From: Eledone cirrhosa
Taxonomy: Eukaryota
Length of the DNA stretch: 64,000 nt
Direction: 5' to 3'
Assembly (NCBI GenBank): GCA_964016885.1
Contig: OZ024763.1
Location: forward strand, 27,652,001 to 27,716,000
This document shows, one piece after another, positions 22,431 to 22,524 of this stretch. The notes below the pieces were generated by a model, which searched no databases, was not told where the DNA came from, and saw only the letters and a list, made by a program, of their open reading frames with translations. Each line of letters starts with the position of its first letter. The first letter of the stretch is position 1. Both the position numbers and the translations under genes were made by a program.

Positions 22431-22524
22431 ACCCCTTGAGAAGATCGGCTATTTAAATACCAGGATAAATTTTCATTTAGTCCAGAAGTAGCCGTCGAAA
22501 CGGCTTGAGCTCAGCTGTCGGGGT
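22431..22524 (+). ncRNA. Type I hammerhead ribozyme (U3-A8 core variant) in the inverted pLTR
   Basis: Stem I ACCCC(22431-35)/GGGGT(22520-24); core TTGAGAA 22436-42; stem II GATCGGCTA/TAGCCGTC; GAAA 22497-500; stem III ACGGCT/AGCTGT; GUC triplet 22517-19. Confidence 0.78.

Follow-up and report, generated by a model that had tools for sequence, protein, structure and literature searches.

A U3-A8 hammerhead motif of type I within the terminal repeats of a young Hydra-clade Penelope-like element, and a likely footprint of its cleavage among genomic copies

Why Penelope-like elements (PLEs) keep hammerhead ribozymes, and whether these ribozymes cut in vivo, are questions that the junctions of inserted copies can address. 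A locus in Eledone cirrhosa raises both. Within a window of 64,000 nt (contig OZ024763.1, positions 27,652,001 to 27,716,000; all coordinates below are window positions unless a locus is named), a single insertion carries three copies of a motif that lacks the usual hammerhead core sequence and nevertheless folds as a hammerhead. Our favoured reading, to which we give a probability of about 0.68, is that the terminal repeat of a young Hydra-clade PLE here carries a type I hammerhead motif whose core is U3-A8, and that, among the RNAs copied into the genome, a minority likely cut themselves after C22519.

The whole insertion occupies 16801-22622 within (TA)n and is built as follows:

16801..17781, minus strand: downstream pseudo-LTR (pLTR), ending in (TA)n at 16801
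18004..20304, minus strand: intact ORF with reverse transcriptase (RT) and C-terminal GIY-YIG endonuclease of a Hydra-clade PLE, 717 aa from the ATG at 20157
20328..21324, minus strand: upstream pLTR, 997 nt, 97.9% identical to 16801-17781
21321..22622, plus strand: inverted, 5'-truncated arm of the insertion, from self-alignment
22540..22619, plus strand: 80-nt 'tail' between element ends at 22539 and 22619, with loose contig ends at 20328 and 20248

The ORF presents RWR (aa 37), DKT (aa 117), YRDD (aa 348) and CxCX5C (aa 572), followed in its C-terminal part by a GIY-YIG-like motif (aa 591-608 of 717), CxxC (aa 670) and CxH (aa 698), features that are also kept in homologues at ~40% identity. 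These are the marks of the Hydra clade (RWK or RWR, DKT, a CxCX5C linker, C-terminal GIY-YIG, CxxC, CxH) in the available text of Craig et al. (2021, PMC8557442), and the (TA)n insertion, the pLTRs and the tandem or inverted arms agree with that clade as well. Naiads, characterised in the same text by an N-terminal GIY-YIG and DKA, fit poorly: the endonuclease motif follows YRDD, no GIY-YIG-like motif was found upstream of the RT in three frames, DKT stands in place of DKA, and the CX2-5CxxC finger is absent. A Pfam search of the ORF returned no family. By its motifs the element is thus a Hydra-clade PLE and not the Naiad of the preliminary description, and with this the surprise is gone, because Hydra elements carry hammerheads whereas canonical ones are absent from Naiads (PMC8557442, in the portion available). 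The preliminary view of a young and intact family was well founded: it counts at least 150 copies in the genome (G000), most of them without stops within the part searched, and all 150 scored matches are 94-100% identical over the first 186 aa. Tandem arrays of the element with 3.5-kb spacing also exist in this genome.

Other retroelements share the window. Two tandem non-LTR elements (2830-8237 and 8766-14350, minus strand) have intact 1,139-aa endonuclease-RT ORFs with ORF1-like frames upstream, and we take them to be L1/Tx1-type LINEs. Another non-LTR element, presumably RTE-like by appearance, is represented by a split RT reading frame (38996-41023, minus strand).

The hammerhead motif and its parts, numbered on copy A, are located as follows:

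22431..22524, plus strand: hammerhead copy A (type I), within the ORF-less arm that is inverted and 5'-truncated (sequence and folding)
20343..20436, minus strand: hammerhead copy B, in the upstream pLTR, 39 nt before the TTG of the ORF
16816..16909, minus strand: hammerhead copy C, in the downstream pLTR (sequence and folding)
22436..22442, plus strand: core 5' half UUGAGAA (U3, U4, G5, A6, G7, A8, A9)
22497..22500, plus strand: core 3' half GAAA (G12, A13, A14, A15.1)
22506..22513, plus strand: palindromic loop III region (UGAGCUCA; sequence), a possible dimer contact
22519..22520, plus strand: predicted cleavage site C17/G1.1; many head-to-head mini-insertions end at G22520

Three stems surround the core with stem I open, as expected of type I, and the 94-nt motif differs by only 1-2 bases between the window copies. 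In copy A, stem I is formed by 22431-35 and 22520-24, U3 and A8 lie at 22436 and 22441, and the remaining landmarks are G10.1 (22443), C11.1 (22496), G12 (22497), A15.1 (22500), U16.1 (22518) and C17 (22519). Every required core element is present (U4, G5, A6 and A9; G12, A13 and A14; the pairs G10.1-C11.1 and A15.1-U16.1; H17), all letters outside the 3-8 pair are exact, and positions 3 and 8 form a Watson-Crick U3-A8 pair in the three window copies, though not in a C3·A8 subfamily considered below. Stem II is interrupted by a bulge after its initial one or two pairs. The three-way hammerhead is the minimum-energy fold of all three copies (-25.9, -22.7 and -20.5 kcal/mol); against 200 shuffles the energies give z = -2.06, -0.96 and -0.13, two of the three being not beyond chance. 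Since folding energy alone is insufficient, the case against chance rests on the exact core, its conserved location and the covariation of stem II, and on these grounds the motif is a real hammerhead. CUGANGA does not occur on either strand of 16700-22700, and an Rfam search of 15000-25000, which gave 139 matches at E of 10 or below, did not list a hammerhead. The preliminary description had claimed a complete type I hammerhead without CUGANGA, repeated in three pLTR copies and escaping standard descriptors; fold, core letters and sequence bear this out, Rfam misses the motif too, and the cut that it placed after C22519 falls at the C17 of a GUC triplet in hammerhead position, as predicted for cleavage.

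Stems II and III have sequence in common, and for this reason a competing hairpin that buries GAAA is possible. Its predicted pair probability is 0.24 in the whole motif, 0.75 for 22479-22619 and 0.32 for 22479-22545 (the latter two containing the 5' half-ribozyme). The common sequence comprises 5 bp (22490-22505), and the hairpin can still form in an older subfamily. One candidate for a tertiary contact between stems I and II emerged, a possible ACCA/UGGU pairing; since other subfamilies do not keep it, this pseudoknot was discarded.

Conservation was followed among relatives and within the family. Of 77 metagenome loci encoding relatives, 71 had usable flanks, and a scanner blind to positions 3, 4 and 8 found 37 distinct sense hammerhead matches in these Hydra loci, as compared to 4 in twice as much control sequence. 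Canonical C3-G8 hammerheads adjoin the ORF in 35 of the 37; one of the others is C3-G8 with C4 and one is U3-A8. The U3-A8 match (L098:2097-2150) is an independent case; it follows a Hydra-type ORF on a metagenome contig. Among 29 copies from G000, selected to span its subfamilies, three stem II pairs were changed on both sides between subfamilies, amounting to 28 cells against 13.0 in shuffles (0 of 500 shuffles as high, a significance overstated by the relatedness of the 29 copies), although these changes mostly trace to one split between related subfamilies. Pairing was kept in 90.2% of cells, as opposed to 25-49% for slid partners; stems I and III showed no both-side changes in the 29 copies. 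N7 takes all four bases among subfamilies and position 10.2 also varies freely, while U4, G5, A6, A9 and G10.1 are invariant in these copies, which were chosen by a pattern containing those letters. Stem covariation, which the preliminary description had named as a check, was seen in stem II; the U3-A8 pair is not strictly conserved within the family.

Exact matches with U3-N7-A8 numbered 5,282 in G000, next to at least 1,665 with C3-G7-A8, i.e. with a C3·A8 mismatch, and 64 with C3 and another N7. C3 made up 24% of the depth in independent contigs (run X1), matching the assembly. G8 was found in 62 matches, 12 of them with C3; this frequency of ~1% is as expected from decay after insertion. 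In the older subfamily, most of the first 100 of 307 matches were U3-A8, three were C3-G8 and five U3·G8, so the canonical pair does exist within the family. Our initial impression of an uncommon compensatory core therefore needs dividing: the U3-A8 core itself stands, but its rarity was overstated, given ~1,300 published Schistosoma matches. The C3·A8 copies counted here show in addition that the pair is not strictly kept.

A tree was built for 20 copies from the final 1,200 nt of their ORF, and the 11 U3 copies did not group together as a clade (AU p = 1.7e-56). With the older subfamily as root, the tree forms a ladder from U3-A8 through nine C3·A8 copies on successive nodes to U3-A8 again, including the window element. 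This root is one outgroup copy (L430), as five of six outgroup stretches had too little ORF. Rooting by a sister family at 53% identity, which would make C3·A8 basal with two independent compensations, was set aside for weak root support, the closer outgroup giving the order U3, C3, U3. The mismatch lineage was amplified whichever root applies; with the single-copy root, it would have lost the pair and then regained it (U3-A8 to C3·A8 to U3-A8). The fixed G7 of the mismatch core (1,665 versus 64) fits a shifted register, CUGA followed by GA with N7 deleted, yet descent from a single G7 ancestor accounts for it equally well. Under the favoured reading, the 3-8 pair seems to be under weak constraint.

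In one subgroup of the older subfamily (L413-L418 and L430), G7-G8 is combined with either C or U at position 3, which may mark a path from C-G via U·G to U-A; L416 appears chimeric. A second Hydra family in G000 (L243-L272, e.g. L246:1320) has 53% protein identity and many open 713-aa ORFs. Its hammerhead-like motif has the core CAGAAGA, that is U4A with C3-G8: A4 occurs in all 54 matches, 51 of which read CAGAAGAU, and the constrained hammerhead fold lies 0.8 kcal/mol above the minimum. The predicted cut site of this family lacks a G-run.

Where copies end bears on how the RNA is made and used. Two further features are needed here:

22477..22485, plus strand: likely transcription start region in the stem II insert (TTAGTC); coding-strand equivalent 20388 (minus)
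35968..36130: example of a short copy of this family, a mini-insertion in (TA)n with its arms head to head

Ends were surveyed in 90 of the first 100 of 5,467 matches, using as anchor the tail, which lies 3' of the cut site. The longer arm ended at 22473-22486 in 62 of the 90, with 37 at 22479-22480 (peaks at A22479/G22480, a second start at A22484); none ended at 22431-22472, nine read through upstream of the motif, and in three both arms ended at 22520. An inverted partner arm was present in 67, and depth in independent contigs drops at 20388. TTAGT, which we take to resemble an initiator, is kept in the older subfamily despite divergence of the insert. Of the arms that end at A22479 or A22484, 14 of 19 are preceded by an untemplated G, as compared to 8 of 41 with other ends (p = 1e-4; 11 of 15 when counted per locus), with 41 overlapping or blunt junctions left out of the test. 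An extra G marks capped full-length L1 insertions (PMC11702581, as far as available). The peak of insertion ends and the untemplated G together point to a capped transcription start that likely lies inside stem II. Tiny head-to-head fragments outnumber long copies, and in the window clusters of such fragments, often head-to-head and in (TA)n, lie at 26978-27977, 35949-37101 and 61168-61265.

A second class of ends marks the cut site. A head-to-head junction pattern near it, with a marker for the young subfamily, retrieved 232 loci, as compared to 0 for the control. The first 50 loci, from two chromosomes, were tallied by eye, blunt junctions being ambiguous by one base. The longer arm ended exactly at G22520, the base after C17, in 20 of them (p = 2.5e-10 against 1 in 13 per position), and 18 more were compatible with this end (12 blunt CCCC/GGGG, 4 more blunt ones lacking one G, and 2 with a one-base ambiguity); 8 read through and 4 were shorter. 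Short untemplated A/T runs often lie between the arms. These ends likely represent run-off of the RT on cleaved RNA, G22520 being the 5' end of the 3' cleavage product, and it is through this footprint, indirectly, that an active ribozyme is supported. A search, mostly at the level of listings, found no title or abstract pointing to such a cut-site footprint.

The subfamilies rich in C3·A8 failed as a negative control, since the same footprint is present there. Their markers retrieved 264 loci (control: 2). Of the first 50, 20 ended exactly at G22520 and 3 more probably did so, allowing for one mutation; 1 was blunt, 9 read through, 11 were shorter, and the other 6 belonged to a single local cluster. 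The cluster (G000:C2:276983737-277001125), with six cut-site junction copies within 18 kb, is probably a local duplication. The commonest of these markers also occurs on 3 of 6 U3 copies, versus 17 of 18 C3 copies. Scaled up roughly from samples of this small size, U3 carriers by themselves would give ~40 junctions, whereas the estimate is ~110; the footprint is therefore probably left by the mismatch subfamilies as well. In that case either C3·A8 cleaves, perhaps through a C·A+ wobble with protein help, or U3 cores cleave in trans, or the stop is structural.

How might these ends arise? In the favoured reading, transcription would start at a capped A in the long stem II insert, which would leave the ribozyme 3' half at the 5' end of the mRNA and one whole ribozyme at its 3' end; given this start site, copy C is the only complete hammerhead expected in the mRNA of the window insertion. 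The protein would nick (TA)n DNA and start two cDNAs, later joined head to head, at two positions (likely 22539 and 22619) that lie 20 and 100 nt 3' of the cut site. Three kinds of priming could then account for the copies: the many short head-to-head ones, which end at the start site, would come from priming near the cap; the long ones from priming behind a whole ribozyme that is still uncut; and those that run off at G22520 from priming on cut RNA. Long copies mostly need an uncut or religated template, so cleavage would be minor or slow: a partial side step, not needed for each insertion, that probably frees element RNA from read-through transcripts or makes circles.

The best-surviving alternative is that the motif folds but hardly cleaves, serving as a promoter and protein-binding structure, and that copies stop at G22520 where the RT stalls or switches template, either at the three-way junction or at the G-run. 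It has real attractions: a C3·A8 lineage was amplified to at least 1,665 exact matches with the same footprint, the U4A change is present in all 54 matches of another active Hydra family, the likely start site within the motif could alone conserve its 3' half, and in another PLE hammerhead mutants had no effect on insertion in vitro (PMC11167929, in the text available). However, the ends are sharp at G1.1, with none counted unambiguously at the unpaired C17 that a stem III stall would favour, and the untemplated A/T between arms is expected at a template end. Besides, the lineage regained a Watson-Crick 3-8 pair on the rooting above, and conservation extends to the core 5' half, which lies upstream of the start site, although N7 itself varies. 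We regard this alternative as unlikely, though it deserves to be taken seriously.

Less probable still is an efficient, required ribozyme whose cut and religated unit-length RNA circles serve as templates for long copies, following the model of Cervera and de la Pena (2014). The stable stem III and extended stem I would favour a monomer fold, the tandem arrays with 3.5-kb spacing suit such a template, and the footprint fits a unit RNA beginning at G22520; yet most copies start at the cap-marked site rather than the cut site (62 versus 3 of 90), and a lineage without the 3-8 pair kept making long copies, which leaves this model improbable. Finally, the idea of a hidden Naiad ribozyme that would explain the apparent hammerhead lack in Naiads draws its sole support from the (TA)n target, common to Naiads and Hydra, and, being refuted by the domain order (C-terminal endonuclease, with DKT, RWR and CxCX5C), has next to no probability.

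Returning to the favoured reading, the element resembles the Hydra-clade PLEs in the available text of Craig et al. (2021, PMC8557442) in its RT with C-terminal GIY-YIG, (TA)n target, tail, sense hammerhead in the pLTR, and tandem and inverted arms. On the other hand, the hammerheads in that paper's File S2 are all CUGANGA with a short stem II and loop, whereas those of the present family have a U3-A8 or C3·A8 core, a stem II with a ~40-nt insert that holds the likely start, and a 6-bp stem III, in a unit of 3.5 kb instead of under 3 kb. Several natural hammerheads with C3-G8 to U3-A8 covariation are cited as active in vitro by Perreault et al. (2011, PMC3088659); the C3·A8 mismatch and the U4A variant found here do not figure in its available text. 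The closest precedent is provided by the Schistosoma Cercyon PLEs, whose minimal U3-A8 hammerheads (~1,300 matches; Cervera and de la Pena 2014, PMC4209133) share the core covariation, the pLTR location and the escape from a standard descriptor. The Cercyon motifs are thought to need dimers, while the window motif has a full stem III, and the available text of that study reports no subfamily history, amplified C3·A8 lineage or in vivo evidence. In PAc, a Poseidon element of the green anole, two RT start sites, extension on both strands and a protein-assisted, dispensable hammerhead are described (Frangieh et al. 2024, PMC11167929, as far as available). The hammerhead adjoining the ORF start is common to both elements, and so, in the favoured reading, are the two internal RT start sites that define a tail and the extension of both target strands. 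However, the PAc core is C3-G8, its hammerhead is dispensable in vitro, and no RNA reads were found at its cut site, where genomic copies of the present family pile up.

A U3-A8 PLE hammerhead was thus already known in 2014; what the present analysis adds is the footprint, the likely start site nested in the ribozyme, and a 3-8 pair that was lost and later restored. The fullest version of this picture has three parts: that ~170 young insertions at the cut site are a fossil record of PLE hammerhead cleavage in vivo, that a C3·A8 hammerhead still cut in cells during the amplification of its lineage to over 1,600 copies, ahead of the return to U3-A8, and that the start site lies inside the ribozyme, which leaves the mRNA with a single whole copy, the downstream one. 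We hold the three jointly as a tentative proposal, with slightly less than an even chance of being right. Counts of head-to-head junctions could provide a cleavage readout from DNA alone, applicable to PLE-rich genomes and to extinct subfamilies. Besides, the subfamily ladder, together with the U4A of the sister family, offers natural variants (C3-G8, U3·G8, U3-A8 and C3·A8) in nearly one scaffold, and these form a ready test of how strict a hammerhead core must be when a protein helps.
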